Assembly: GCA_028693395.1 (NCBI GenBank)
Contig: JAQUVJ010000002.1
Span: 1 to 63,753, forward strand
DNA from: Candidatus Nanoarchaeia archaeon
GTDB lineage: Archaea; Nanobdellota; Nanobdellia; Woesearchaeales; JAQUVJ01
Direction of reading: 5' to 3'
DNA length: 63,753 nt
Shown piece by piece: positions 4,806 to 59,817 of this stretch. Position numbers and translations under genes: made by a program. The notes under the pieces are model-generated. The model worked only from the letters and a program-made list of their open reading frames with translations. It was not told where the DNA came from and did no database searches. The number at the start of each line of letters is the position of its first letter. Position 1 is the first letter of the stretch.

Positions 4806-4862
4806 TAATAAAAACCACCTTTAAAAACAGTTCTTTTAATTAATTTTCAAATTTGTATTAAA

Positions 4863-4906
4863 TAAAAAAACAGTCTTAAGAATGTTTTAAATTCAAAAGA
4901 CTGTTT
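4863..4906 (-). terminator. terminator-like hairpin in leader of 2442..4805
   Basis: Minus strand AACAGTCTT-19 nt-AAGACTGTT followed by T7. Confidence 0.55.
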
Positions 4907-4924
4907 ATATTAGCCATGATATTT

Positions 4925-5100
4925 ATAAAAACTTAGCCGAAAACCACTAGGTCTTTAGCCTAGTGGATGAAGGCTTATCCTACTGTCATAACCTTGGTTT
5001 TAAATATATTTTCCAATGATATTTTTTGACACATTACAGATGAAAGTGCAAGAAAGCTCCTCACTTTAGCGGGAGTAGTTCACCTACTCATAATATAACC
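4925..5100 (-). ncRNA. candidate structured leader RNA or sRNA
   Basis: ORF-free, locally G+C-enriched; hairpins GAGTAG/CTACTC (5073-5089), AAAGTG/CACTTT (5043-5067), CCACTAGG/CCTAGTGG (4944-4966) plus TTTT. Confidence 0.3.
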
Positions 5101-5115
5101 ATAAGCTTTCTATAA

Positions 5116-5340
5116 TTAATCAATAACAATTTTCAGAATATTGCTATCATTTTTCATATCACTAATAACATTATTTCTTATTTCTTTAAACTTGTCACTT
5201 ATAGTTTTAATTTTATTCACCAATTCTTTAAACTCTTCTTCTTTCAATACTTTATCATGAAAAGAATTATAACTAATTGTTCCTTCCAAATTATTTTGAA
5301 ATCCTACTATTCTTTTATTATCACCAATAGAATATATCAT
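5116..5340 (-). CDS. hypothetical protein
   Basis: 74-aa ORF. Confidence 0.55.
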   Translation of the reverse strand: MIYSIGDNKRIVGFQNNLEGTISYNSFHDKVLKEEEFKELVNKIKTISDKFKEIRNNVISDMKNDSNILKIVID

Positions 5341-5494
5341 ATCTTTATTTTTTTCATATCTTCTTAAAATTTCATCACTGTAATATATTTATTTTTTTCC
5401 GGTTTTGTTATTACTACATCACAGATACTACATACAGGAACATTTTCACATTCTATATTACTATCCGGAAATATTTTTTGAACGCATACAGTTT

Positions 5495-5764
5495 TCAAAA
5501 CATCACGTCCTTTACAGAAAGTGGTTTTACATCAACCAGTGAATCTTCAATTTCTTGTTGAACATCAATACAATATACATTCGCACATAATATAAGCCCA
5601 TGGACTTTATGATCTTCTACAACATACGCAATTGACTGAACAATATACGTTTTTGAATTAATATACACAATTTCACTCACTCTAGGGACAAATGTACAAT
5701 TCAGTAATGGCTCAATAATCCTCTCATTTTTCAATGTAATAAATTGAATAACAGACGTATTCAT
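5495..5764 (-). CDS. hypothetical protein
   Basis: 89-aa ORF, 4-nt overlap with upstream gene. Confidence 0.6.
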   Translation of the reverse strand: MNTSVIQFITLKNERIIEPLLNCTFVPRVSEIVYINSKTYIVQSIAYVVEDHKVHGLILCANVYCIDVQQEIEDSLVDVKPLSVKDVMF

Positions 5765-6012
5765 TCTTCTATCTCCTTTGCTTTTCGATGTAAAAATTCT
5801 TTTGTGATAGGAATATATATTGGAATACTAATAACTTGTCCAACATATATTCCATTTTTACTGATTTTATTATTCATCATAATATCATAAACAATTTTTC
5901 CAACATCTATAACATTTCCCATGTCTTTAAGGGTTATGTTATTAACAATATCCCATAATGTATCCCCCACACGTACTTTATAATCTTCAAATTTAATAAC
6001 CCAATCAAACAT
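5761..6012 (-). CDS. LysM-domain protein
   Basis: YKVRVGDTLWDIVNN...GIYVGQVISIPI matches the LysM pattern (Y.V..GDTLw.I...l..G..l.iP). Confidence 0.6.
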   Translation of the reverse strand: MFDWVIKFEDYKVRVGDTLWDIVNNITLKDMGNVIDVGKIVYDIMMNNKISKNGIYVGQVISIPIYIPITKEFLHRKAKEIEE

Positions 6013-6230
6013 TTCTTATATCTCCTTATTCCACAGGGTAACAATACGATAAGCGTTTTTTAAAGCTTCTTTATAACTATTTTTATCAAATATTGTATCT
6101 TCACCAACAAATACACAATTTACTTCCATAGAACAAATAATTTTATTATCATCTACAGTTCTTATAAATATTTCCCAACACCCATCTTCTTGAAAGTCTT
6201 ATCATCAATATATTATTGACTTCTTATATC

Positions 6231-6656
6231 TTAAAAGTTATATAACACCTTTTTATTTGCAGCATCTATACATTCTTTAATTCTTTCTCCATAATAACTT
6301 TGATTTTTTGGGTTAATATCTTTACCAAATAATTCACAATATGGAATATTTTTATTAAATGAAAAATGCCGACATTTATGAGAACAATATTTATCATTAT
6401 ATGACGAAGGTTCAATAAATTCTTCAAATAAAATAGATAATTCTTCATTTTCTTGTATTTCAATATTTTCTGTAGCTTTACAACATTTAAAATATCTTTC
6501 ACCACATCTATCTTCATCTAATGAAGATAATATTACACCAAAAAGTTTACAATAAGGATTCTTTTCACTATTCATATTCCAATATTTACAACGAATAGAA
6601 CAATATTTTTCATCCCAAGGTCTAATATATTTTATAATTAATATAGGAATATTCAT
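6231..6656 (-). CDS. Cys-rich protein with internal duplication
   Basis: Two copies of D.KYCS..C+.....N.PYC.LFG...C (zinc-binding-like). Confidence 0.6.
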   Translation of the reverse strand: MNIPILIIKYIRPWDEKYCSIRCKYWNMNSEKNPYCKLFGVILSSLDEDRCGERYFKCCKATENIEIQENEELSILFEEFIEPSSYNDKYCSHKCRHFSFNKNIPYCELFGKDINPKNQSYYGERIKECIDAANKKVLYNF

Positions 6657-6673
6657 TTTTATCTTCTTTCTAT

Positions 6674-6925
6674 TTAAAATGCATGATTTCTAAAACGATT
6701 GATTTGTACATCCATATCTTGCATAAGATCATATGATTCCATATATTTTTGCATAGCTTCTGGATTATTTCTTGCTGCTATAGCTCCTTTTCTAGTATCA
6801 TAAAATGCAGGATAATCTTCATAATCAAATGTATCGCACCAGATAATCATATATTTTTTACCTTCTTCAATTCCTCTCTTCGCCCATTCTTTAATATCTT
6901 CTCTTGTAGTAGACATATCAATCAT
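6674..6925 (-). CDS. hypothetical protein
   Basis: 83-aa ORF. Confidence 0.6.
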   Translation of the reverse strand: MIDMSTTREDIKEWAKRGIEEGKKYMIIWCDTFDYEDYPAFYDTRKGAIAARNNPEAMQKYMESYDLMQDMDVQINRFRNHAF

Positions 6926-6944
6926 TCATTTCAAAAAAAAAGTA

Positions 6945-7379
6945 TCACTCTTTTTCAAGAAGAGGGTTTAAACAATTCTTAAAACTTTCACTTTTTAAAA
7001 ATTCTAAATTATCACTGCTTAATGACATACTTACCATATGAAGTAGTGCTCTAAATTCCGACAATTTCTTTTCGGATCGACAAATAGCTTCATCATATCC
7101 AGCCATTATTGAATTAGCAAACCAACCTCTCATTGTATCCAGATTAACATTTGAATTAAATTTACAAAATTCTTCGGCCCATTTAGCAGCATCAATTTCT
7201 CTAATTTCATTAAAAATACGTGTTTTTCTATTTTCTTCTCTTAGTTCAGCTTCCCAACAATCTTGACATATTGTTCTATGAGTTTTTTTACTACTGAAAA
7301 AAGTCGTATATTCTTCAGTATAAAATTTTGAGCATGAACTACATTTTAAAATTGTTTTTACTTTCACCGATACAGACAT
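6945..7379 (-). CDS. hypothetical protein (N-terminal CxxC...CxxC)
   Basis: 144-aa ORF. Confidence 0.6.
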   Translation of the reverse strand: MSVSVKVKTILKCSSCSKFYTEEYTTFFSSKKTHRTICQDCWEAELREENRKTRIFNEIREIDAAKWAEEFCKFNSNVNLDTMRGWFANSIMAGYDEAICRSEKKLSEFRALLHMVSMSLSSDNLEFLKSESFKNCLNPLLEKE

Positions 7380-7399
7380 TTCTAATCCCTCAATTCAGT

Positions 7400-7741
7400 C
7401 TATTCCATACGATTTAAACGTGTTGCACTATTTATAATATATTTAGTGTTTTCCATTCCTTTTAAAATATCATATACAAATGACAAGACATGTTCTTCCA
7501 TTCTTTGATGAGTTACCGATATTAGAAAAGTAGTATAGTTATTACAAAAATCCTCCGAAACAATTTTAATAGTTCCACAATGACCATAAGGATCATAATC
7601 TTTATAAAAATCATAAAAGAAAGAATGTATATAATCTTTGTTCACTTCTTTATTGATCATTTCCAATATTTTATCAACATCATCATTATAGTTGTTACAA
7701 TGAATGTGAATATTCTTTGTTTCAGATATTGTTTTAATCAT
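7400..7741 (-). CDS. hypothetical protein
   Basis: 113-aa ORF. Confidence 0.6.
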   Translation of the reverse strand: MIKTISETKNIHIHCNNYNDDVDKILEMINKEVNKDYIHSFFYDFYKDYDPYGHCGTIKIVSEDFCNNYTTFLISVTHQRMEEHVLSFVYDILKGMENTKYIINSATRLNRME

Positions 7742-7742
7742 T

Positions 7743-8069
7743 TTACATTTTCTTAACCAATTCCCAGTCTATACTTTCATACCCAGCAATAACATCTTTC
7801 AATTTATGATGCTCTGTTATATAGAATGTTTTAGGTCGTCTATCCTCTTCATCCGTAAAATCATTAAATTCTCTTTCATTAAACGCCAGACCGCAAGCTG
7901 TAAAAAGACCATTATCAATAAGAACTAAAACAGCTTTTTTGTCTTTTCTAACTTCTTCCACAGCAATTTCTTTAGATACCTTTTCAGCATTAAGAGATAA
8001 CCATTCCTCTTTTATTATATTATTAGGATTGACATAATAGCCCATATTCAAATCCTCCATTTTTTTCAA
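7743..8069 (-). CDS. hypothetical protein
   Basis: 108-aa ORF abutting next gene. Confidence 0.6.
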   Translation of the reverse strand: MKKMEDLNMGYYVNPNNIIKEEWLSLNAEKVSKEIAVEEVRKDKKAVLVLIDNGLFTACGLAFNEREFNDFTDEEDRRPKTFYITEHHKLKDVIAGYESIDWELVKKM

Positions 8070-8269
8070 ATATTACTAATTATACACTACAATTCAATTC
8101 TTGTCAATAGAAATCATTCCACTTTTTCAAGAGTAATAATCATTCTATATTTTCCACAATTATCAAAACTTAATAACCCTAAAAATGATCTACAAAATTT
8201 TTCTATATCAATACCAGTACTTTCCAGTTTAAAAGTAAGTTTATCCCCTTTATCTGAAAATTCAACATT

Positions 8270-9391
8270 TTAATGATTAATAAGTGATTGACAAAATTTA
8301 TACATATAAGATAATCTATTATGATAATTACCTTTTACTATTTCCATTTTCGGATGAGCAGTAAAATCTCTAATATTGAAATTTTGATAATGTTCCAATA
8401 ATACTCCATCTAATTCATCCCGATAATCTTCATGTCTTCTTAGTCCATCACTCACCCATGGAACGCCCTCAAAAGAAAGGAAAAATCTATAATCATACAA
8501 ATCTTTATAATACGCATCATATATTGAATTAAAAAGATTCAATTCGGAGTCGGATATTTCATAAATATCATTTTCATTTTTATACAATCTATAATAGTAA
8601 TAAGTAACTACAATATCGGTATCAAAAAAACACAATCTATTGCAAGTTTTCAATGCATGGTCATTCGCTTCTATTTGCAATCTGATTATATTAAAATAAT
8701 CTTCATCGGTAATATATCTTTCATCATTTACATTTTGTTCTACATATATCCGACCCATTTCTTCGGCCCAAGATGTATGGAATATTTTAGCCAACATTTT
8801 TACCAGAGTAGTTTTTCCTGTTGATTCTGTACCAGTAATAAGAATCTTTTTTGCAAAGTGTTTTCTAGCTGACCCGCAAATATAGTCCCAATATTGCAAA
8901 GGATTTTTTCTTATTTGTGTAGCTGAAATAGGATATCTTGTCATAGAATAATCAAAATATTTAATATCGTACTCTGGAAAATAAGATTTATAAAATTCAA
9001 CATCATTCAATTCTCCAGTAAAAATAGTAAATTTAATATCCGTTGTATAAGGAGTACAATAATCATAAATAAAACTATTCAAGCATTTACTCCATTGAGG
9101 CCACCCAATGGGATATTCTGGCATATCATTAGGTTCCTTCATAATATGAATTTTTATATTATTAAAACCTTTTAATTCAGTTTTCAGCCAACGCAATCTT
9201 GTATCAGCGGAAATATATTTGATATTTGCTTCTTTACATAATCTCATATCTAACTGAATATTGTCGCAAATGATAATATTCAATTGATCACACTGAGAGT
9301 ATGCATTAAAAATATGAGTAAGATGTCCTCGATGTAAAGGAAAAAATTTTCCGACTAATATACCAACATGAAAATCATTATTGTTCATCAT
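8270..9391 (-). CDS. nadR: NadR-like bifunctional NMN adenylyltransferase / ribosylnicotinamide kinase (no HTH domain)
   Basis: GKFFPLHRGHL (HxGH), ISATQIRKNP (ISxxxxR), P-loop ITGTESTGKTTL with NadR-like context. Confidence 0.8.
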   Translation of the reverse strand: MMNNNDFHVGILVGKFFPLHRGHLTHIFNAYSQCDQLNIIICDNIQLDMRLCKEANIKYISADTRLRWLKTELKGFNNIKIHIMKEPNDMPEYPIGWPQWSKCLNSFIYDYCTPYTTDIKFTIFTGELNDVEFYKSYFPEYDIKYFDYSMTRYPISATQIRKNPLQYWDYICGSARKHFAKKILITGTESTGKTTLVKMLAKIFHTSWAEEMGRIYVEQNVNDERYITDEDYFNIIRLQIEANDHALKTCNRLCFFDTDIVVTYYYYRLYKNENDIYEISDSELNLFNSIYDAYYKDLYDYRFFLSFEGVPWVSDGLRRHEDYRDELDGVLLEHYQNFNIRDFTAHPKMEIVKGNYHNRLSYMYKFCQSLINH

Positions 9392-10250
9392 ATATTCTCC
9401 CTTTTTTTAAAATAGTCCATTCTCTTTTTTCTTTTGAATCTTCCGTCCATTTATAATAGCCATAAAAACTATTAATAAGAAAGCCAAGCCACATAAATAC
9501 AATCGGAAGTACCCAAGTAACAGAATTTCTATCATTTAATACAACCAGAATCCACATGAAAATAGTTATAATATTTGTAAGAATCCAAAATATCCATTGT
9601 TGTGAGTATGCCAACGTCATTAGAATCTGACCAATAATCTGTAATACTTCAGTAGATGAATCCAGAATTGGACCAAGTAATGTTATTCCAGTTATTGCTG
9701 TTATACTGGAATATATTGATTCATTTCTTTGCATAATATGAACAAACCAATGATCTACCATAGAAAGAAATATTCCGAATCCAATCAATGCTAGAATAGA
9801 AGTAATTGTAATAATAAATATACCTTGTTTTGTCAATTTTCTAGGCTTGATATATATTCTAGAAAATTTATCCATATGATATTTTTTCCATACAACCCAA
9901 CCAATAAATTGAAATGGCAGAAAAAAGAACCAATTTAAAATCCAATCACCATAATATCCGCTATACCAAGATATTGCTCCATACATAATAGCATTAATTA
10001 TACCCCAGTAGTAATTAGTAATATTTTCTTTTGCTACTAATACTACACATACTATTCCTGTTATAGCAGCTACGGGTGATATAATCCAATTCAATATAAC
10101 ATCAAAAAATGTATCATAAGGAGTTATATATGAAAAATAAAAAGTGGATCCCATAATAAGAGTAGTAATGAAGCCAACCAATATTTTTTCAAATACATTC
10201 CAAGAACTAAAATCCAAAGATTTTTGAATATATTGTATCATTATTTTCAT
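9378..10250 (-). CDS. pnuC: PnuC-like nicotinamide riboside transporter
   Basis: 290 aa, multiple TM helices rich in W/Y (SWYSGYYGDWILNWFFF); overlaps nadR-like gene by 14 nt. Confidence 0.7.
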   Translation of the reverse strand: MKIMIQYIQKSLDFSSWNVFEKILVGFITTLIMGSTFYFSYITPYDTFFDVILNWIISPVAAITGIVCVVLVAKENITNYYWGIINAIMYGAISWYSGYYGDWILNWFFFLPFQFIGWVVWKKYHMDKFSRIYIKPRKLTKQGIFIITITSILALIGFGIFLSMVDHWFVHIMQRNESIYSSITAITGITLLGPILDSSTEVLQIIGQILMTLAYSQQWIFWILTNIITIFMWILVVLNDRNSVTWVLPIVFMWLGFLINSFYGYYKWTEDSKEKREWTILKKGRIYDEQ

Positions 10251-42734: not shown

Positions 42735-43748
42735 TTAATCAATAGTATGTTTAAAAAATTCACTTCTCATAATTTCAGATGCTTCATTATTTACAAATTT
42801 CTGCAATCTTTTAGTTTCTTCATTTGTTAGATCAAAATTAAATTCTTTTTCAAAATCTTTAAGAATATCTAAATTATACTCTTTAAGCACATTACCAAAA
42901 TCTTTTTTTGATACTTCCCCAATATGAGATAATACATTATGAAGTCGATTTATTGTAATAAATTCAAGAATTGCTTCTCTTGCTTCATTTTCAGTATCAG
43001 ACATATTAATTTCTTTTACTACTTTAATTTTATTACTTTTCATTTTTTCAGAAAATTTATCATTCTTATTTTTAAGAATAACTCTTTGACCATTACCAAA
43101 TTGATGTTCAATAAGAGGTTTAATTACAACACCCTCAGTAATATTATTTTCAATAGATGGTAAATGAAAAAGTTTGTGTATCATATCAGGTTCATCATTC
43201 GGATAATTTAAACATTCATCAAGTGTTCCTACAAAAAGAGTAGGAGTAAAAAGAATATTACAATTTTCAAATACTTGTGTTGCTAATTCCCAATTCATAT
43301 ATTGATTTCCATTTTCAGTAGGCGTAGCAATATCAAATGCAATAAAATCATTATGAGGACAGTATTGAATTCTTCCTTGAATTTTTTTAGAACCTGGTAC
43401 TTTATTCACATCTGGGTGATTATATACACCACCAAAATTCTCACCAAATATAATAATGCTTTCAATATTATTTAACGGATACATTGACTGTACTTCTTTT
43501 AGAGCACACTGAAATCTTGTTCTATACTTTTCTAAATTATCTAGCATACAGTCAAAATTTGATCCATCCGTAACTACATCCGAACGTCTTGCTATTTTAA
43601 TATCATTTTTTGAAATAATATACGAACCATTTGAGCCATCTACTTTAGGAAGAACTACCCATTTTACATTTCTATCTACAACTTCTCTAATAAAAAATAA
43701 AGTTTTTTCTTGATATGAATTTTCTATTTCACTAAATTTTTTCCACAT
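42735..43748 (-). CDS. rnlB: RNA ligase 2 (T4 Rnl2 family)
   Basis: KFSEIENSY N-terminus, KVDGSN nucleotidyl-transfer motif, RVILKNKNDKFSEKMKS, ITINRLHNVLSHIGE...DFGNV parallel T4 Rnl2. Confidence 0.85.
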   Translation of the reverse strand: MWKKFSEIENSYQEKTLFFIREVVDRNVKWVVLPKVDGSNGSYIISKNDIKIARRSDVVTDGSNFDCMLDNLEKYRTRFQCALKEVQSMYPLNNIESIIIFGENFGGVYNHPDVNKVPGSKKIQGRIQYCPHNDFIAFDIATPTENGNQYMNWELATQVFENCNILFTPTLFVGTLDECLNYPNDEPDMIHKLFHLPSIENNITEGVVIKPLIEHQFGNGQRVILKNKNDKFSEKMKSNKIKVVKEINMSDTENEAREAILEFITINRLHNVLSHIGEVSKKDFGNVLKEYNLDILKDFEKEFNFDLTNEETKRLQKFVNNEASEIMRSEFFKHTID

Positions 43749-45681: not shown

Positions 45682-46650
45682 TTAAACTTCAACTCCTATA
45701 ACAGTACCATTTTCTTTTCCTGTATATCGAGGGTCTTCTAACTGTCTTCTTATATTTTCATTATTTTTTGCCATATAAACACCATATATAAATTTATAAA
45801 CATCATTTTTATTTGCTTTATCCAATTCCAGATTATCATTTTCAAGCATTCTATTTATAAAAGGTATTGAACTAATTATAAGATTTATACATGCAGCATA
45901 CATTTTTCGATTTAAAGTAAATAATGTACCAAATCTCATGCTATCATAATAAGTATCTGAATATTGTTTCCAATCTTTAAAATTACAATTTCTAATAAAA
46001 TCACGATTTAATGAAAATAAATTCATATAATTATCATAATAGTTATATGAAATATCAGATATATTAAAATTTATTGCATTATTAGAATATAGATATGTAA
46101 TAATATGATTTCCTTCATTAAGAAGCATCTCATATACTTGTCTAGAAAATTTATTATCTTCCACATAATAATATTCTAAATTGCTATTATTAAAATGATT
46201 TTTATTTTCAATCAATGTTATTTGATAATGTTCTTCTAGTAATGCTGTATATTGTAATATAAAATGAAAAACATCTATAATTTCTTCACAAATTAAAAGA
46301 CTTGAATTATATAAGTCTTCTTTGTTTTTATAAAATTTTACTTTGTTATAATAGTTATTGACTGCATCTTGTACTTCAAATATCTCATCATTCATTGCAA
46401 TATAATTATGATTATAAATATGTTGATATAAACATTTAATTAGTTCATAACCTTTTACATCATTATTAAAATGTCTTTTTTTAATCATATTAGAATTTAA
46501 ATTATTTCTCATCATATCATATTGTGTTTTAAGACATTGTGATAATACATAGCCAGCTAATTGTGAATGTGAATCAAAATTATAAGATTCTAATTCTTTA
46601 ATTTTTTCTATAATGATATTTTTATTTTGTAAAATTGATAGCATACTCAT
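45682..46650 (-). CDS. hypothetical protein (possible all-alpha NTP pyrophosphohydrolase-like)
   Basis: 322 aa; EEIIDVFHFILQ resembles MazG/dimeric-dUTPase metal-binding helices; weak. Confidence 0.35.
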   Translation of the reverse strand: MSMLSILQNKNIIIEKIKELESYNFDSHSQLAGYVLSQCLKTQYDMMRNNLNSNMIKKRHFNNDVKGYELIKCLYQHIYNHNYIAMNDEIFEVQDAVNNYYNKVKFYKNKEDLYNSSLLICEEIIDVFHFILQYTALLEEHYQITLIENKNHFNNSNLEYYYVEDNKFSRQVYEMLLNEGNHIITYLYSNNAINFNISDISYNYYDNYMNLFSLNRDFIRNCNFKDWKQYSDTYYDSMRFGTLFTLNRKMYAACINLIISSIPFINRMLENDNLELDKANKNDVYKFIYGVYMAKNNENIRRQLEDPRYTGKENGTVIGVEV

Positions 46651-49231: not shown

Positions 49232-50680
49232 ATGGATAAAATTTCGATGATCATAGTTTATTTTTTATTTTTTATTATATTTTTATTTTTTATTCAATAC
49301 ATTTTAAATATTAATAAAGATAAAAATAATTGTAAGATTATTAAATATTATAAAAATTTACCAAAACCAGTAATTATAATTGATATATTACATAATCGAA
49401 TTGCTGATTATAATGATGATGCTGAAAATCTGTTTAATTTGAATATTGAATATGTTAAAAATTTAAGCATATTTGATAATTTTGACGATTATCTTGCAAT
49501 TAAAAATAATATTAGAGATTCAATTGAAGGAGATTTTATAACACAAAATATAATGCTTAAAAACTCTTTATATAGTATTCATTATACTATTATAAGAGAG
49601 AATAATAAAAAATTTTTATGTATTCTTTTTGATGATATCTCTAATAAATTTGATTATTTAAAAAATTTAGGAATATTTTCATCCATAATTGAAGAAAGCC
49701 CTGATGGAATTATATTAGCAAAATATATAGATTATAATAAATCTCCTATTATTATTTATATGAATAAAACATTAGAAGAAATTACTGGTTATAATAGATT
49801 TGATGTTATTCAAAAACCTCTTAATAGTTTATTTGAAATGAATGTAGATGAAAAAACATTACAAAATATTGAAAAAAATATATATTCATTACGCCCAAGT
49901 ACTTTGGATTATCAATATATAAATAAATTTGGTGAAATAAATTGGGTTGTGACTGATATTATTCCTGTAAATAATATAAACATTTCCAATTCTTTAAAAG
50001 TTCTAGATAAAATGAACATACTTAAAAAGATTGAAGGTTATAATAATATTGATAATTTAGGAATTGACATTTTTATTTCCATACATCAAAAAGATATTAC
50101 TGATGTTAAACATTATGAAAATTCTTCAAAATCTTTTATATCCAGATTACAAAATACTTTAAAAGAAAAAATAACTTTTCATGAAAATATAGTTAGAAGT
50201 ATTATATCAATTTTAAATACAAATGTCAATAACACGATGATTATAAACGATGTTCTAAAAATAATAGGTGAGCTTTTCAATGCTGATCGTTGTTATATTT
50301 TTAAATTATATGAAAAGAAAGATTATTTATATATGGATTATTTATATGAATGGGTCGAAGAAGGAATTACTCCAGAAATAAACAATCCAACTTTAAGCAA
50401 TATATCATTTTCAGACGTTGGCGCGTATGATTTATATGCAAATTTAATAAGCAATAGAATTTCTAAAATTATAGTTTCGGATATTAAAGACCCTGCATTG
50501 AAATTCACTTTGGATGCACAAAATATTAAATCTATGATAGCTTGTCCTATATTTAAAGAAGAAAAATTAGTGGGATATATTGGAATTGATGATTGTACAA
50601 ATGAAGATAGAAATTGGGATACTCAAGTTGAATTAGTCTTAAGAAAAGTGAGTGACAGTTTAAGTAATTTTATACATTAA
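49232..50680 (+). CDS. membrane-anchored PAS-GAF sensor protein without output domain
   Basis: N-terminal TM; PAS-like IIEESPDGIILAKY...IIYMNKTLEEITGYNRFDVIQKPLNSLF; GAF-like LKIIGELFNADRCYIFKLYE...MIACPIFKEEKLVGYIGIDDC. Confidence 0.65.
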   Translation: MDKISMIIVYFLFFIIFLFFIQYILNINKDKNNCKIIKYYKNLPKPVIIIDILHNRIADYNDDAENLFNLNIEYVKNLSIFDNFDDYLAIKNNIRDSIEGDFITQNIMLKNSLYSIHYTIIRENNKKFLCILFDDISNKFDYLKNLGIFSSIIEESPDGIILAKYIDYNKSPIIIYMNKTLEEITGYNRFDVIQKPLNSLFEMNVDEKTLQNIEKNIYSLRPSTLDYQYINKFGEINWVVTDIIPVNNINISNSLKVLDKMNILKKIEGYNNIDNLGIDIFISIHQKDITDVKHYENSSKSFISRLQNTLKEKITFHENIVRSIISILNTNVNNTMIINDVLKIIGELFNADRCYIFKLYEKKDYLYMDYLYEWVEEGITPEINNPTLSNISFSDVGAYDLYANLISNRISKIIVSDIKDPALKFTLDAQNIKSMIACPIFKEEKLVGYIGIDDCTNEDRNWDTQVELVLRKVSDSLSNFIH

Positions 50681-53587: not shown

Positions 53588-53599
53588 AACTTGAACTTA

Positions 53600-53631
53600 A
53601 AACTCTCTCATTTAAACGAGAGAGTTTTTTT
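53600..53631 (+). terminator. intrinsic terminator
   Basis: AACTCTCTC/GAGAGAGTT stem then T7. Confidence 0.8.
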
Positions 53632-53694: not shown

Positions 53695-54027
53695 ATGAAA
53701 AAACTAGATATAATTGATGTTGTTAAAGATTTAATTGATAGCACAAAAATTCTTTTAAAAAAAGATTTTAAAAATACATGTTCTCATGATGAAGTTTATA
53801 GAGGTGGTGCAATTTGGACTATTTGTAGTCAATGTGGAAAAAAATGGGCTGATGATGAAGGTGGAATGTCAGAATATCAAGATCCAGAAGAATGGGATGA
53901 TGCTCAAAAAGCTATTGATAATGGTGAAGAATTATTAAAACGACTAGAAGAATTTGTTAAAGCTAGATATGGCATTTCTTATAGAGCTATTACAAAAAAT
54001 GATGGAAAGGACTGTTTAAATGACTAG
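53695..54027 (+). CDS. hypothetical protein (CxxC)
   Basis: 110-aa ORF. Confidence 0.6.
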   Translation: MKKLDIIDVVKDLIDSTKILLKKDFKNTCSHDEVYRGGAIWTICSQCGKKWADDEGGMSEYQDPEEWDDAQKAIDNGEELLKRLEEFVKARYGISYRAITKNDGKDCLND

Positions 54028-54811
54028 TGCAAATTATGAAATGTGTACTGATCCTCTTGATATGGAAAATTCTGAAATATTAGGTGATGGTGAAGATATT
54101 TATACTGAAGAAGAAATAGAAGAACTTAATAAAAAGGAAAAAGAAGCGGCATTTTCTGAATATTTTAATAAGCTAAATAATATTCCTATTAGTGATGATT
54201 TTAAGCATAAACTAATTGAAGTTGTTTTAATGTTACTTAATAAAGGGCATAGTGGTAGTTCATATGATTATACAGTTAGTAGGATTTTATATTATCTATA
54301 TAAAAATATTTCTTTAGAAAAAATTAAAACGGACTTACCTGAATATTATAAAGAAGATGCTGATTCATTTGAAAGAACAATTGCAGAAAATATTATTGAT
54401 GTAATAGAAAAATTTAGGTCTTATTTTAATAATCCACAATATTCAATGTTTTTTATTGATCTTCTTCAGAAATTATTTTATCATAATCCAATTAATAAAT
54501 ATATTACATTTGAAGATGATAAATGGGGAGAGAATACTTTTAATCTTGATAAATCTGTTAAACATTCACTTTATCAGCATAAGGAATCTAGTGATGTTTT
54601 TAAAGAAGTTGATGAAGATGGTAAAATAAATATTTTCCAGATAGGTTATTTTATTTTTGAAGATGAAGATGGTTATACGTATACCAATGGGAATAGCATA
54701 ATTGATTTAAATGATTATGATTATTGGCATCCACATTCTATATTAGTAACAAAAGATATTGTTCAAAGATTAATAAACGAATATAGAAGTCATAATGTTC
54801 TATTTAATTAA
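54020..54811 (+). CDS. hypothetical protein
   Basis: 263-aa ORF. Confidence 0.6.
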   Translation: MTSANYEMCTDPLDMENSEILGDGEDIYTEEEIEELNKKEKEAAFSEYFNKLNNIPISDDFKHKLIEVVLMLLNKGHSGSSYDYTVSRILYYLYKNISLEKIKTDLPEYYKEDADSFERTIAENIIDVIEKFRSYFNNPQYSMFFIDLLQKLFYHNPINKYITFEDDKWGENTFNLDKSVKHSLYQHKESSDVFKEVDEDGKINIFQIGYFIFEDEDGYTYTNGNSIIDLNDYDYWHPHSILVTKDIVQRLINEYRSHNVLFN

Positions 54812-54826
54812 AAGGGGGACTTTAAT

Positions 54827-55381
54827 ATGATAGAAAGTTTACAGCGTGATGATTGTTTAGTAGTGATTGATTATCAAAAAGATTTTGTAGATGGTCTTCT
54901 TCCATGTAATCAGCCAGCTAAAGATATTGAAAATTTTATAATTGAATGTGTAGAAGAATTTCACAGTATTAATAATGAAGGAAATGTTATTATTACATTG
55001 GATACTCATGAAATTCCTAAATATACAATTTCAAATGAAGGTAAATATTATCCAAAACATTGCGAAAAATATACCGAAGGTTGGTTGCCTTATGGTAAAC
55101 TAAAAAATTATATGAATTATACAAATACACATGTAATAGAAAAAGATACTTTTGGATCTATTCATTTAGTTAATTACCTTCATACTAACATGAAATTTAA
55201 AAATATTTATGTTACTGGTGTTGCAACTAATGTGTGTGTTTTGCATAATGTAATTTTAATGTATAATATGCTTCCAGATGTTAAAATTAATGTTCTAGCT
55301 AAAGGGTGCGCCTCTTTTGATGAAACATTGCATAAACAAGCATTAAAATTAATGGAAGGTTTTGTTAACGTAATTTATTAG
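54827..55381 (+). CDS. pncA: nicotinamidase / isochorismatase-family hydrolase
   Basis: LVVIDYQKDFV (Asp), later Lys, VTGVATNVCVLHN (nucleophile Cys). Confidence 0.7.
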   Translation: MIESLQRDDCLVVIDYQKDFVDGLLPCNQPAKDIENFIIECVEEFHSINNEGNVIITLDTHEIPKYTISNEGKYYPKHCEKYTEGWLPYGKLKNYMNYTNTHVIEKDTFGSIHLVNYLHTNMKFKNIYVTGVATNVCVLHNVILMYNMLPDVKINVLAKGCASFDETLHKQALKLMEGFVNVIY

Positions 55382-55434
55382 ATTATTATAAGGGTTGAAA
55401 TTTAAATTTCAACCCTTATAATTTTTAGAAAGGG

Positions 55435-56376
55435 TTGATGAAATTGATTAAAATAAATGGAAATGTTATTGAAAACACAAATTATCCTAATGGTGAAATT
55501 AAATTAAATACAAAAAGTATCGTAGATTTTATATATGATTCTCGTATGATATCATCAAACTCTGAAAATAAGAATATAATTAGTTTTTATCCATACAATC
55601 CTAATGATATTTTAGAATTAGTATTTACTACTAATTATATAAAACAATGTTATAATAATATATTTTCTGAATTTATACTTGATATTAAATATTTACCATA
55701 TTCGAGAATGGATAGAATTAAAAATCTAAAAAATGATGTATTTTCTTTAAAATATTATTGCGATATAATCAATAATCTAGGTTATAGTAAAATACAAGTA
55801 GAAGATTGTCATTCTGATGTTGGGGTTGCATTACTAAATAATAGTATAAATGTGAATTCATTTATGTATAAATTTAAAAATACATATTTAAATGTATATG
55901 ATGAATCTTTATTAAAAGGTGATTTTTATATTGATGCTGAAAGATTAAATATACATGAAATTATGCAAAAACATACTTATATAGTTTATCCAGATACTAC
56001 TGCAATTAAAAGATATAGTGAAATGTTTAAAGAATATAAAAAAATAATTTCATTTAAAAATAGAAATTGGGAAACTGGAAAAATTGAATCTATCGAAGTT
56101 ATAAATAGTAATAAGGAATCTATAACTAAAAATTCAATTGCTTGTATTGTTGATGATATATGTAGTTATGGTGGAACTTTTATTGGAGTTTCTGAAAAGT
56201 TGCGTGAAATGGGTTTTGGAACTATAGTATTAGCTGTTACACATTGTGAAAATAGTATATTTTCAGGAAACATATTTAATGAAAATTCATATATAAATTA
56301 TGTAATTACTTCCAATTCTATATTGAATCCAAAAAATGTTGAATGCTTAAATAAATTAACAATAATGGAAATTTAA
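55435..56376 (+). CDS. ribose-phosphate pyrophosphokinase-like (Prs or ADPR-pyrophosphokinase)
   Basis: YPNGE, YLPYSRMDR, EDCHSD, PRPP-loop IVDDICSYGGTF; divergent from housekeeping Prs; start TTG 55435 or ATG 55438. Confidence 0.7.
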   Translation: MMKLIKINGNVIENTNYPNGEIKLNTKSIVDFIYDSRMISSNSENKNIISFYPYNPNDILELVFTTNYIKQCYNNIFSEFILDIKYLPYSRMDRIKNLKNDVFSLKYYCDIINNLGYSKIQVEDCHSDVGVALLNNSINVNSFMYKFKNTYLNVYDESLLKGDFYIDAERLNIHEIMQKHTYIVYPDTTAIKRYSEMFKEYKKIISFKNRNWETGKIESIEVINSNKESITKNSIACIVDDICSYGGTFIGVSEKLREMGFGTIVLAVTHCENSIFSGNIFNENSYINYVITSNSILNPKNVECLNKLTIMEI

Positions 56377-56392
56377 TGGAAAGGTCTGATTA

Positions 56393-57886
56393 TTGATGTT
56401 TGATTACAACCCAATGCTTTTGACAGACTTTTATAAAACAATACATTATAAATTATACCCAGAAAATTCTAATAAAATATATTCTTATTGGATACCAAGA
56501 CAAAGTAGATTAGAATATGATAAAGTTGTAGTTTTTGGTATTCAAGCATTTATTCAAGAATATTTAATTGATTATTTTAATAAATATTTTTTTGAAAAAG
56601 ATATAAATGAAATTTTACGAGAGTATATGAGATTAATAGAATATACTTTTAATTCAAATATTATTATTGAAGATTTAAATCATATTAAAAAACTTCATAA
56701 ATTGGGATATCTACCATTAGAAATTAAAGCTATTAAAGAGGGATCGTTAGTAAATATAGGAATACCAATTATTGAAGTAAGTAATACAGATAATGAATAT
56801 TTTTGGCTTGTTAATTATTTAGAAACTTTATTATCTTCTTCTATTTGGCATCCTATGACATCAGCAACTATATCATATATGTTTAGAAATATTGTAAATA
56901 AATATTATAATATTTCATCTGATATTAAAACTAAACATGGTGCTATGGGTGATTTTTCTTTAAGAGGTCAAACATCTATTAATTCGGGTATAGCTTCAAG
57001 TGCAGCATTTTTAACATCATTTTCTAAAACAGCAACGATACCTTCAATTCTATATCTTGAAAAATATTACAATTGCGATATTAAAAGTGAAATTGTTGGT
57101 ACGGGAACACCTTCTACTGAACACTCCGTAATGTGTTCTTATGGTAAAGAAAATGAATTTGAAGTATATGAAAAAATACTAGATATCTATAAATCTGGTC
57201 CTATAAGTATAGTTTCAGATACTTATGATTATTGGAATGTTTTAACTAATTTTATTCCTAGATTAAAAGATAAAATAATGTTAAGAAAGGGTAAAGTTTT
57301 AATACGTGGTGATAGTGGTAACCCTGTTGATATTGTATGTGGCAATGAATATTCAGATAATATTAATGAAAGAAAAGGAACGGTGGAAATTTTATGGGAT
57401 TTATTTGGTGGCACAATAAATTCAAAAGGATATAAAGTTTTAGATTCACATATAGGGTGTATTTATGGCGACGCAATTACTTTACAAAGAGCAGAAGAAA
57501 TATATACAAAATTGATAAATAAAGGTTTCTCTGTTGAAAATGTAGCTTTAGGTGTTGGTTCTTATAGTTTACAATACGTAACTAGAGATACTTTTGGGTT
57601 TGCTATGAAAGCTACACATCTTGAATATAAAAATAACGAATTTATAGCATTATTTAAAGACCCAATAACAAGTAAAGATACAGTAAAAAAATCTCCAAAA
57701 GGAATATGCTATGTATATAAAATTGGAGAGCAATATCATTTAATGGATAATTTTAATTCTGAAAGTATTAAATTAGTAGAATACAATAATCAATTAGAAA
57801 CTATTTTTAAGAATGGTGTTATAATGAGAAAACAATCATTAAAAAATATTAGAAATATTTTACATTCATACTCTGGAGGATTTTAA
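56393..57886 (+). CDS. nadV: nicotinamide phosphoribosyltransferase-like (NAMPT/NadV or Namat)
   Basis: NPMLLTDFYKTIHY N-terminus typical of NAMPT; about 495 aa; GDFSLRGQTS; adjacent to Prs-like gene. Confidence 0.8.
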   Translation: MMFDYNPMLLTDFYKTIHYKLYPENSNKIYSYWIPRQSRLEYDKVVVFGIQAFIQEYLIDYFNKYFFEKDINEILREYMRLIEYTFNSNIIIEDLNHIKKLHKLGYLPLEIKAIKEGSLVNIGIPIIEVSNTDNEYFWLVNYLETLLSSSIWHPMTSATISYMFRNIVNKYYNISSDIKTKHGAMGDFSLRGQTSINSGIASSAAFLTSFSKTATIPSILYLEKYYNCDIKSEIVGTGTPSTEHSVMCSYGKENEFEVYEKILDIYKSGPISIVSDTYDYWNVLTNFIPRLKDKIMLRKGKVLIRGDSGNPVDIVCGNEYSDNINERKGTVEILWDLFGGTINSKGYKVLDSHIGCIYGDAITLQRAEEIYTKLINKGFSVENVALGVGSYSLQYVTRDTFGFAMKATHLEYKNNEFIALFKDPITSKDTVKKSPKGICYVYKIGEQYHLMDNFNSESIKLVEYNNQLETIFKNGVIMRKQSLKNIRNILHSYSGGF

Positions 57887-57887
57887 A

Positions 57888-58631
57888 ATGATAGTAAATT
57901 TTGAACTTGTTAAAAAGATTAAAAGTTGGATTAAAGAATATTTTGATAACAATTCAAATAGTCAAGTAGGTCCAAAAGCTATTATTGGTATTTCTGGTGG
58001 TAAAGATAGTGCTGTATGCGCTAAACTATTGTGTGATACAATTGGCCCAGAAAACGTGACATGTGTATTGATGATGTCAGAAGAAACAAAAAAAGATATG
58101 GATTATGCAATTGAATTTGTTACTTCTTATTTAAAAGCTAATATTGTTTTAATTGATCCAAAATATATTTCTGAATTAAAAAAATTATTTAAAATGACAA
58201 TAGATGATAATTTATCAGAACAAGCATCTATTAATATTACACCTAGAATACGAATGACTATTCTTTATATGTTAGCAAGTACTTTACATGCTAGAGTATG
58301 TGGGACTGGTAACTTGTCTGAAAGAACTGTTGGTTATTTTACAAAATGGGGCGATGGAGCTTGTGATTTTAATCCTATTGGCAATTTAACATGCACAGAA
58401 GTTTTAGAAATTGGTAATATTTTAGAAATTCCATCTTATATAATGAATAGACAACCAGAAGATGGTGTTTCTGGAAAAACAGATGAAGAAAACATGGGAT
58501 TTTCTTATAAAGAATTAGATGATTATATAAGAAAAACTAATTTTGCTTCATTTAATTATCCAAAAATACTTATTATGGAAAAAGCAAATCGTCATAAAAA
58601 TAATCCAATTCCAATGTTTGAAATTAATTAA
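57888..58631 (+). CDS. nadE: NH3-dependent NAD+ synthetase
   Basis: PP-loop GISGGKDSAV; FTKWGDGACDFNPIG typical of NadE. Confidence 0.8.
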   Translation: MIVNFELVKKIKSWIKEYFDNNSNSQVGPKAIIGISGGKDSAVCAKLLCDTIGPENVTCVLMMSEETKKDMDYAIEFVTSYLKANIVLIDPKYISELKKLFKMTIDDNLSEQASINITPRIRMTILYMLASTLHARVCGTGNLSERTVGYFTKWGDGACDFNPIGNLTCTEVLEIGNILEIPSYIMNRQPEDGVSGKTDEENMGFSYKELDDYIRKTNFASFNYPKILIMEKANRHKNNPIPMFEIN

Positions 58632-58671: not shown

Positions 58672-58700
58672 TTGACAGATTACTAATTTTATGATATAAT
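58672..58700 (+). promoter_or_regulatory. consensus sigma70 promoter
   Basis: TTGACA-17 nt-TGA-TATAAT. Confidence 0.75.
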
Positions 58701-58725
58701 CTATATAGAAAGGAAGTGTTTGAAA

Positions 58726-59817
58726 TTGAATTCTAAAGATTATTTGAATATCCCTACATATGATGAGTGTATGTCATTAGTAGAATCAAACCCAGATGCT
58801 TTTATAACCAAAGATGAAAATGTAGATGGTATTGATGTAACTACATTCGGTTATCGACTTGCATCATATTCTGATTTTACTCTTAATGGTGCTAGAAATA
58901 TGAGAGGAATTACATTTAGAAAAGACACTAAAAAACTCATTGCTCTTCCTTTTCATAAGTTTTTTAATTATAATGAGAATCCTTATACAATGGACGAATC
59001 AATTAAAAATAAAAATATTGTGAGAATTACAGAAAAATATGATGGCTCTCTTATTTATTTTTTTATAATAAATGGAAAACTATATGCTAAAACAAAAATG
59101 AATTGTTTTAGTGAACAATCTGAATGGGCCATGAAAATTGTAGAAAACATTTCCTTGCTTAAAAAGGGCATTATTGATCTTATAAATAAAGGATTCACAC
59201 CTATGTTTGAATTTATCTCGCCTAGAAATCAAATAGTTATTCTTTATTCATCAGAAGAACTTGTATATCTCGGTGCTAGAAATATGAATACAGGCGAATA
59301 TAATTTTGAATATAAAATGAAAGATTGTAAAAATGCCGAATATCTTCCTTTTGATTCTATTGAAACTTTAAATAAAATTCTTAAAGATTATTATGGTCAT
59401 GAAGGTGTTGTTGTAACTTTTGAAGATGGTGATATGGTAAAATTCAAAACATCTGAATATTTTAATCTTCATAAAGTTAAAGAAAATATTTATAATGAAA
59501 AGGCTATAGCTAATCTAATTCTTAATGAAAAAATAGATGATATAAAAGCTGCATTTTCGACATCGAAAGAATTAGTTGATTATATTGAAGATATGGAATT
59601 TAAAATTAAAAAACATTATTTTAAATTAATTAATCATGCACAGAAGTTTTATAATTTTAATAAAGAACTTGATAGGAAAAATTATGCTATCAATGGTCAA
59701 AAAGAACTTTCTAAAATAGAATTTGGTCTTGCTATGGAATTTTATCTTAATGGAATGTATGATATTGAAAAATTTAAGGAACGATTTATTGATAAAAAAA
59801 TGTGGGAAGAAGAATAA
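58726..59817 (+). CDS. rnlA: RNA ligase 1 (T4 RnlA family)
   Basis: FGYRLASYSDF, NMRGITF, FHKFFNYNENPYTM, TEKYDGSL (ligase Lys), PMFEFISPRNQIVILY parallel T4 Rnl1; TTG 58726 is better spaced from AGGAAG than the track start 58720. Confidence 0.85.
   Translation: MNSKDYLNIPTYDECMSLVESNPDAFITKDENVDGIDVTTFGYRLASYSDFTLNGARNMRGITFRKDTKKLIALPFHKFFNYNENPYTMDESIKNKNIVRITEKYDGSLIYFFIINGKLYAKTKMNCFSEQSEWAMKIVENISLLKKGIIDLINKGFTPMFEFISPRNQIVILYSSEELVYLGARNMNTGEYNFEYKMKDCKNAEYLPFDSIETLNKILKDYYGHEGVVVTFEDGDMVKFKTSEYFNLHKVKENIYNEKAIANLILNEKIDDIKAAFSTSKELVDYIEDMEFKIKKHYFKLINHAQKFYNFNKELDRKNYAINGQKELSKIEFGLAMEFYLNGMYDIEKFKERFIDKKMWEEE

Follow-up and report, generated by a model that had tools for sequence, protein, structure and literature searches.

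The 63,753-nucleotide (nt) contig JAQUVJ010000002.1, which is analysed here over its full length and referred to as the window, comes from an assembly binned as Candidatus Nanoarchaeia archaeon (GCA_028693395.1). The contig is clearly that of a phage, with genes for an ATP-dependent DNA ligase, a polymerase, a UvsX-like recombinase, Rnl1- and Rnl2-type RNA ligases and a glycine-rich fibre-like protein. Four open reading frames (ORFs) stand in a row on its + strand between positions 54827 and 58631, and both the ORFs and their protein families bear out an earlier note on this DNA, which had described four consecutive NAD+ genes there. The first encodes a nicotinamidase-like (PncA-like) cysteine hydrolase of the isochorismatase family (54827..55381, 184 amino acids (aa)), the second an Adps-type Prs-like protein that is predicted to be an ADP-ribose (ADPR) pyrophosphokinase (55435..56376, 313 aa), the third a NAMPT-like transferase of the Namat family (56393..57886, 497 aa), and the fourth NadE, an NH3-dependent NAD+ synthetase (57888..58631, 247 aa). 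Spacings of 53, 16 and 1 nt separate the genes from 5′ to 3′, with the adps-type and Namat-type genes 16 nt apart on the same strand and the NadE ORF beginning 1 nt after the transferase stop. Each gene is preceded by a Shine-Dalgarno sequence, and the true starts of the Prs-like and NAMPT-like genes are likely the ATG codons that follow the listed TTG by one codon (55438 and 56396).

Few outcomes of bacterial immunity to phages are commoner than the depletion of NAD+, which is brought about by Thoeris, DSR1/2, SIR2-HerA, SEFIR and other systems, and NAD+ reconstitution pathway 1 (NARP1) is the main known means by which phages undo it. NARP1 consists of Adps and Namat, which turn ADPR via its pyrophosphate into NAD+, and is found in phages Bas63, SPbetaL1, FADO and ICP1 (Osterman et al., 10.1101/2024.02.11.579819). 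We propose, with a probability of about 0.5, that the four genes of the window would form a cassette for rebuilding NAD+ that is derived from NARP1 and runs via nicotinic acid.

The central gene pair

The Prs-like protein scores 59 bits against the ribose-phosphate diphosphokinase model TIGR01251, below its cut-off of 113, and matches the phage family phrog_619 strongly (E-value 2e-60), which agrees with its description in the earlier note as clearly divergent from housekeeping Prs. Its phylogeny was reconstructed with Adps references from ICP1 (sequence taken from the phage record), SPbetaL1, FADO and Paenibacillus foliorum (L146), together with E. coli Prs and nine Prs proteins of the bin's order; SPbetaL1, FADO and ICP1 are references with characterised enzymes or operons. 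The protein lies inside the Adps clade, where the ICP1, SPbetaL1, FADO and P. foliorum Adps, all characterised, bracket it, and the split from E. coli Prs and the nine other Prs proteins has support 100. The active-site features of Adps known from ICP1 include the β-hairpin catalytic lysine K185, the acceptor residues R87, H121, D161, D212 and D213, a remodelled PP loop and the loss of C-terminal helices α11-α12 (PMC13586617). The window protein retains R91, H126, D187, D240 and D241 as well as K208, the equivalent of ICP1 K185. Its PP loop, DDICSYGGTF (C243-S-Y-G-G-T-F249), has the form found in SPbetaL1, FADO and P. foliorum, as opposed to the DD[MI][IV]DTGGT of Prs, and its C terminus is short, with 63 residues past the PP loop compared with 85-93 in Prs. 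These features support its placement as a predicted member of the Adps clade and not as a housekeeping Prs. Searching the PDB by sequence with this protein returned Prs chains only, at E-values of about 1e-4, and a single-protein scan of viral contigs found three relatives at 32-35% identity. A Namat homologue adjoins adps in 97% of Adps genes (Osterman et al., 10.1101/2024.02.11.579819).

The NAMPT-like protein carries NAMPT_N and NAPRTase domains, passes the cut-off of model NF006629 (508 bits, cut-off 405) and matches phrog_448 with an E-value of 3e-168, while the PncB-type model TIGR01513 gives it 25.9 bits, below its cut-off of 297. The PDB chain that it matches best is the SPbetaL1 Namat (9W5W/9W5X, 496 bits), with mammalian NAMPT at about 228 bits and KVP40 NadV at 188. 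In a tree with references including SPbetaL1, FADO, ICP1, P. foliorum, KVP40 NadV and a mammalian NAMPT, the Namat clade, this transferase included, is split from the KVP40 and mammalian NAMPTs with support 100. Within Namat the transferase sits, as sister to the protein of locus L027, in a clade with support 99 that we refer to as A/S after two residues of its nicotinamide pocket, which are discussed below. The structures of NARP1 enzymes have been published (PMC12774641; PMC13586617), and the published selectivity clamp of Namat, which holds the adenine, comprises an SCH motif of the form GS-X-Phi-X-Phi-X-Phi-TRD in which positions 3 and 7 are aromatic, and a stacking Arg, Lys or Tyr in the SCL loop. 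The sequence G389-S-Y391-S-L-Q-Y395-V-T-R-D399 of the window transferase, together with R39 in PRQSR, fits this signature, and the catalytic core of F188, R191, H244, R305 and D307 is intact.

The phylogeny that the earlier note had proposed therefore puts neither protein with housekeeping Prs or NAMPT, both falling into the Adps and Namat clades with support 100. Because clade membership of the two proteins and the published residue signatures agree, the assignment of the central pair to the NARP1 layout, also made in that note, is supported. PDB entries 9KE8 and 9KEO, deposited as a 'nicotinamide phosphoribosyltransferase', group with Namat as well (393 bits to the window protein), and their clamp motif, GAQTYQRNTRD, has no aromatic residue at position 3 or 7.

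A remodelled nicotinamide pocket and its gene context

Seven residues form the nicotinamide pocket of SPbetaL1 Namat, namely F189, R192, D215, A242, R306, D13′ and Y15′ (Namat structure paper). The window transferase keeps five of the seven; where SPbetaL1 has D215 and A242, it has Ala214 and Ser241, and by its pocket residues it falls outside standard NARP1. A D219S mutant of NAMPT, ascribed to Khan et al. in 2006, reportedly accepts nicotinic acid. D215 of SPbetaL1 Namat hydrogen-bonds the amide of nicotinamide, and its replacement by alanine lowers NAD+ synthesis 8-fold (Namat structure paper); the equivalent Asp219 of human NAMPT has been called fundamental in defining substrate specificity (PMC7096376).

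The Ala/Ser combination is present in the window protein and in all 120 of its closest homologues from a search of 5.8 billion proteins, most of which are chromosomal genes of Clostridium species. In contrast, the characterised Namat proteins (SPbetaL1, FADO, ICP1 and P. foliorum), KVP40 and mammalian NAMPTs have Asp/Ala (D/A). Among the best 149 representatives at 50% identity, 114 are Asp/Ala and about 31 combine Ala, Ser or Val at position 215 with Ser at 242. When groups were defined by position 215 and all of about 490 alignment columns were scanned without bias, position 242 was the best discriminator, and nine of the top ten columns lay within 5 residues of F189, D215, A242 or R306. The main differences between the A/S and D/A groups lie at the pyridine site. 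The A/S, S/S, V/S and A/G types form one clade with support 97-99, also when both pocket columns are left out, and a search of the tree for independent origins of the non-Asp pocket found none, all non-Asp types belonging to this clade. The A/S clade is deep, with 47 tree rows and about 32 clusters at 50% identity, and contains no reversion to Asp.

The gene context of these transferases was surveyed at 169 loci, each taken with about 6 kb on either side, of which 91 are Ala/Ser and 78 Asp/Ala. Alignment-based scans gave 80 loci from IMG/VR and 80 from GTDB species genomes, and the others are the reference phages, three contexts from exact-protein look-up, and the window. Counting genes within 3 kb, the Ala/Ser loci have Adps in 86 cases, a PncA-like gene in 83, NadE in 80 and both PncA-like and NadE genes in 73, whereas the Asp/Ala loci have Adps in 64 cases and neither a PncA-like gene nor NadE in any. 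With a loose threshold and the whole flank considered, the corresponding values are 88/91 against 0/78 for the PncA-like gene and 80/91 against 0/78 for NadE. When the loci are grouped into clusters at 80% identity, a PncA-like gene accompanies 13 of 14 and NadE 12 of 14 Ala/Ser clusters, and both are absent from all 33 Asp/Ala clusters. The characterised NARP1 operons are all of the Asp/Ala type and have neither gene. The same search found no NadD or other nicotinamide mononucleotide (NMN) adenylyltransferase (NMNAT) within 6 kb of the transferase at any of the 91 Ala/Ser loci, while it does find NadD beside chromosomal Asp/Ala loci.

Since PncA and NadE occur only with the Namat whose pocket is remodelled, the operon resembles a nicotinate-routed variant more than a standard NARP1 with extras. 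The earlier note had recognised that both genes are present and had taken them to make the pathway more complete than the described minimal ones; they are present, but they mark a distinct Namat subfamily with the changes D215A and A242S. An ordinary NARP1 with accessories would have the transferase join nicotinamide to ADPR pyrophosphate (ADPR-PP) while PncA and NadE boost the flux through the Preiss-Handler pathway of the host in parallel. The intact clamp and catalytic core would suit such an enzyme, as would the fact that the D215A variant of SPbetaL1 Namat, weakened as it is, still works. However, the amide-binding Asp is gone from the whole of a deep clade, no PncA or NadE gene accompanies the Asp/Ala type at any of the 78 loci, and a nicotinamidase expressed from the same operon would use up the substrate for which a nicotinamide-dependent Namat must compete, which weakens this explanation to the point where we consider it very unlikely.

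The order of the genes varies among the Ala/Ser loci. Adps-Namat-NadE-PncA is found at 41 loci, PncA-Adps-Namat-NadE at 19, the window among them, Adps-PncA-Namat-NadE at 10 and Adps-PncA-Namat at 9, and several rarer orders occur in addition. Because the order differs in at least four arrangements while the genes persist, the set has been retained through rearrangement. An NrtR-like regulator with Nudix and winged-helix domains lies beside 17 of 22 chromosomal Ala/Ser loci (for example L111 and L114-L116) and 40 of 58 bacterial Asp/Ala loci, and also adjoins the Ala/Ser locus L030. Adjacency to NrtR was considered as a discriminator of the pocket types and dropped as uninformative, being present with both; it suggests that bacterial NARP1-like operons may generally be under NrtR-type control.

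Two further loci were noted. At L028, a metagenomic relative (ENA ERZ27258100 k141_86551), positions 3910-8592 hold the gene string PnuC-Adps-PncA-Namat-NadE, flanked by IS605-type OrfB/TnpB genes, and the NadE is 369 aa, above the usual length. In Phage Phass-1, an uncultured gut phage (L191, OQ749652.1), positions 4992-8094 hold a nicotinamidase, a 'ribose-phosphate pyrophosphokinase' and a 'NAMPT' in the order of the window and under these generic names, an example of how the cassette occurs in public records. Phass-1 uses genetic code 15, and its three genes adjoin a large tRNA array.

A predicted route through nicotinic acid and its alternatives

The two outer genes of the operon encode enzymes of recognisable type. 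The PncA-like protein matches PF00857 (E-value 4e-20), and among the solved relatives closest to it are PncA of B. subtilis (5ZN8) and nicotinamidases of S. mutans, S. pneumoniae and P. horikoshii. An Asp-Lys-Cys triad and an Asp/His/His metal site are the pattern known for PncA (PMC13398362). The triad D15/K106/C137 and metal ligands D59/H61/H78 of the window protein are invariant in 87-88 of 88 cluster-associated homologues. With the E. coli PncA equivalog model the protein scores 17.6 bits (cut-off 174), and a single-protein scan of viral contigs found no relative; nicotinamide is its putative substrate. NadE passes the cut-off of TIGR00552 (175 against 63.65 bits), matches PF02540 with an E-value of 2e-48 and carries the PP-motif SGGKDS at residue 36, while a glutaminase domain is absent.

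In the proposed pathway, the PncA-like hydrolase would first deamidate the nicotinamide that defence NADases release, yielding nicotinate. The Adps homologue would use ATP to convert ADPR to ADPR-PP, and the A/S transferase, which keeps the clamp while its amide-binding Asp is replaced by Ala214 and Ser241 is gained, would join nicotinate to ADPR-PP to give nicotinic acid adenine dinucleotide (NaAD) directly. NadE would then convert NaAD to NAD+ with ammonia and ATP. The substrates of the first three steps, the product NaAD and the role in counter-defence are what we infer from residues and gene context, and we provisionally class the operon as a derivative of NARP1 routed through nicotinate. 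The direct route to NaAD has, in our estimate, an even chance at best. The fuller claim stands somewhat below even odds: that the A/S transferase would be a nicotinate:ADPR-pyrophosphate transferase forming NaAD in one step, and that PncA-Adps-transferase-NadE would be a fourth route of NAD+ reconstitution, native to Clostridia, where it usually lies by an NrtR-like gene, and carried by phages as a counter-defence. ADPR-PP is favoured as the donor because verified Adps proteins bracket the Prs-like protein, because R40 and the aromatic residue at 392 (SPbetaL1 numbering) are invariant, and because NadD is missing from the A/S loci.

Several points weigh against this reading, and the first is that the assignment of a substrate to the A/S type is drawn from two residues and the gene context. 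Others favour its main rival, the classical route via nicotinic acid mononucleotide (NaMN). In such a hybrid Preiss-Handler pathway, the PncA-like protein would supply nicotinate and the Prs-like protein phosphoribosyl pyrophosphate (PRPP), from which the transferase would make NaMN, with a host NadD forming NaAD and the phage NadE completing NAD+. SPbetaL1 Namat also uses PRPP in vitro (Namat structure paper), and this retained activity makes NaMN from PRPP possible. Hosts can supply NadD, which is generally present in bacteria and could fill the missing step, and classical pncB-nadD-nadE clusters have been published for gut jumbo phages (PMC11662467). Moreover, the second aromatic of the clamp (SPbetaL1 Y396) is Cys in 65 of the 91 A/S proteins, including most of the viral ones, although the window transferase and the Clostridium proteins keep Tyr there; the Cys possibly marks a sub-variant of this clamp. 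However, the Prs-like protein branches within the experimentally verified Adps and shares the remodelled PP loop with them, and each of R40 and an aromatic at 392 is found in 91 of 91 A/S proteins. Binding of adenine is the one known role of these two residues, and the double mutant of R40 and 392 was the most damaging of the clamp mutants of SPbetaL1 (Namat structure paper). NadD, which the published classical phage clusters include, is found at none of the 91 A/S loci. On balance the hybrid pathway seems unlikely to us.

Also on the negative side, the single origin of the non-Asp pocket makes the linkage to PncA and NadE a trait of one deep clade and effectively one event, and Fisher p-values for the linkage overstate the evidence, as the 91 loci are not independent. 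What argues for function is the long-term retention of the gene set, the reshuffling of its order and the lack of reversion to Asp; replication is no part of this case. The boundaries of the operon are another such point. A terminator-like hairpin (53599..53628, + strand, 11-pair stem with a T run), which is a consensus match only, could mark its 5′ boundary, and a sigma-70-like promoter between NadE and RnlA (58672..58700, + strand, TTGACA-17-TATAAT with TG, 12/12 positions) its 3′ boundary. The consensus scan found 74 promoter-like sites in the region against 65 ± 7 in shuffled sequence, which is not above background, so the promoter is weak evidence and the boundaries of the transcription unit are suggestions only.

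The last of these points concerns the host. The contig, C5 of the bin, has a GC content of 26.6%, compared with 20-23% in most large contigs of the assembly, and C5 and C17 are the only tetranucleotide outliers in the bin. A comparison of C5 with the rest of the bin gave no spacer-like match and no rRNA link, the bin holds no 16S gene, and the recombinase of the contig is closest to Firmicute phage recombinases, at about 27-32% identity. The contig was probably mis-binned, in which case the bin provides no host for the phage and its gene content says nothing about the real one. Prs, NadD (TIGR00482) and PncB or a second NAPRTase-family gene are all missing from the 1.12 Mb assembly, this contig included; their absence was considered as a case against the classical route and dropped on account of the outlying composition and the lack of a spacer or rRNA link.

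Comparison with known systems places the operon nearest to NARP1. The two have in common adjoining genes of the Adps and Namat clades, the PP loop and catalytic Lys of Adps, the clamp of Namat and the predicted conversion of ADPR to ADPR-PP. Unlike NARP1, the window has the D215A/A242S pocket, genes for a PncA-like protein and NadE, and a transferase whose predicted product is NaAD and not NAD+. A precedent for a NARP1 operon with an accessory enzyme that adapts its input is NARP1-AP of Vibrio phage Gary (Adps-Adpp-Namat; 10.64898/2026.01.28.702374). There the accessory is a macro-domain ADPR-1″-phosphate phosphatase that acts on the ADPR side, whereas the accessories of the window belong to the pyridine side and go with an altered transferase; no macro-domain gene was seen in the window operon. 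The Preiss-Handler pathway (PncA-PncB-NadD-NadE) shares with the proposed route the nicotinamidase at its start, NadE at its end and deamidated intermediates between them. In contrast to that pathway, the operon has no PncB-type nicotinate phosphoribosyltransferase (NAPRTase) and no NadD, and has Adps and a clamp-bearing Namat in their place, which would make ADPR, instead of PRPP and ATP, the source of the ADP-ribosyl group.

The NARP1 papers examined contain no mention of nicotinic acid, NadE, isochorismatase or Clostridium homologues. Broader searches for a link of NARP1 to a nicotinamidase, to NadE, to NaAD or to nicotinic acid, or for a 'NARP4', returned no description of the cassette, and the searchable literature yielded none of an enzyme reaction from nicotinate and ADPR-PP to NaAD. 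The nearest published cases are gut jumbo phages with salvage genes or classical pncB-nadD-nadE genes, whose NAMPT homologues are treated as ordinary NAMPT (PMC11662467). If the proposed route is correct, the NAMPT/Namat family would gain a new enzyme specificity, and phages and Clostridia would be capable of recycling ADPR via deamidated intermediates, a form of recycling in which Adps and the transferase take the place of the PncB and NadD of the Preiss-Handler pathway. The route would also explain why a nicotinamidase and NadE lie next to many phage "NAMPT" genes, and would provide a two-residue rule for annotating such genes. Many phages of the gut and the environment would then carry the cassette as a counter-defence, and the defences and host backgrounds that a phage is predicted to overcome would change, for example for hosts with high nicotinamidase activity.

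Other NAD+ genes and putative counter-defence genes of the phage

Upstream of the PncA-like gene, at a distance of 15 nt, lies a gene for a putative Tad3-family protein of 263 aa (54020..54811, + strand), a candidate inhibitor of ThsB of type I Thoeris. Its residues 111-209 match the Tad3 profile PF25185 with 49.2 bits (cut-off 27, E-value 5e-13) over 89 of 119 profile positions, and the precomputed Pfam assignment of the protein is likewise Tad3. Tad3 itself is an inhibitor of type I Thoeris, a homodimer that binds and blocks ThsB. The protein has no relative at the other 168 loci of the survey, a search of 5.8 billion proteins returned only the protein itself, and it has no PDB match by sequence; a single-sequence AlphaFold2 model, with a predicted local distance difference test (pLDDT) score of 41, was unusable.

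A second set of NAD+ genes lies 45 kb from the operon on the opposite strand. It consists of a PnuC-like nicotinamide riboside transporter (9378..10250, − strand, PF04973 NMN_transporter E-value 3e-33) and a NadR-like NMN adenylyltransferase/ribosylnicotinamide kinase without a helix-turn-helix (HTH) domain (8270..9391, − strand, AAA_28 E-value 2e-24), the 3′ end of the former overlapping the start of the latter by 14 nt. The NadR-like protein opens with the NMNAT motif GKFFPLHRGH and also contains ISATQIR and the Walker A motif GTESTGKT. Its best PDB match is 9X6F/9X6H, the Bas30_86 protein of NARP3 (190 bits, E-value 9e-55). NARP3 of phage TrudiRoth pairs this protein with the PnuC-like Bas30_87 (PMC13464706), and the window has the same two-gene layout at 8270-10250, with a NadR-like protein that likewise lacks the HTH. 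Reports of NARP3 come from phages of Enterobacteriaceae, whereas the window pair belongs to a low-GC phage outside these; its layout is that of NARP3 and its function is predicted.

The earlier note had listed the NadR-like gene at 8.3 kb and offered it, with the NAMPT-like protein, as a NARP2-type route. The gene is there, but the adjoining PnuC had been missed, and with this partner and Bas30_86 as its best solved relative the gene fits the NARP3 layout and not NARP2. The likeness to NARP2 (Nampt and Nmnat, Vibrio phage KVP40) consists in the presence of a NAMPT-family enzyme and an NMN adenylyltransferase in one phage genome. In NARP2 the Nampt prefers PRPP and occurs in a phage that lacks Adps, whereas the transferase of the window falls in the Namat clade, outside that of KVP40 Nampt, its pocket lacks the nicotinamide-binding Asp, an Adps gene is adjacent to it, and the adenylyltransferase is of the NadR type and paired with PnuC. 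The phage stacks a NARP1 variant with a NARP3-like pair, predicted to be two NAD+ rebuilding modules. No phage in the work of Osterman et al. combined NARP1 with NARP2.

With the NARP3-like pair in the same genome and the Tad3-family gene directly upstream, the operon block seems to be one of several means by which the phage would meet defences that deplete NAD+. The module could instead serve general metabolic boosting, as an auxiliary one that raises NAD+ for the replication of the phage and has no particular tie to NADase defences, having come from an NrtR-regulated Clostridia operon for ADPR-recycling salvage, an explanation that would fit any of the chemistries considered above. Its closest homologues are indeed in chromosomal Clostridium operons, most of them beside an NrtR-like regulator, and NARP2 raised NAD+ without any defence system (Osterman et al.). 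However, the characterised NARP1 operons of sister clades counter SIR2-HerA, DSR2 and Thoeris, and a gene block that opens with a putative homologue of a Thoeris inhibitor, in a phage that also has the NARP3-like pair, would be less expected of boosting alone, which we regard as rather improbable.

Further genes of the contig were noted. Behind the promoter-like site that follows the NAD+ operon comes RnlA, an RNA ligase 1 of the T4 type (58720-59817, + strand), and an Rnl2-type RNA ligase is encoded at 42735-43748 (− strand); the pair suggests tRNA repair as a further putative counter-defence. A 322-aa protein (45682-46650, − strand) matches MazG-like nucleoside triphosphate pyrophosphohydrolases weakly (phrog_173, E-value 4e-07) and is possibly a modifier of a nucleotide signal or of the nucleotide pool. 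Finally, a 482-aa protein (49232-50680, + strand) has PAS and GAF sensor domains and no recognised output domain, which is unusual for a phage.

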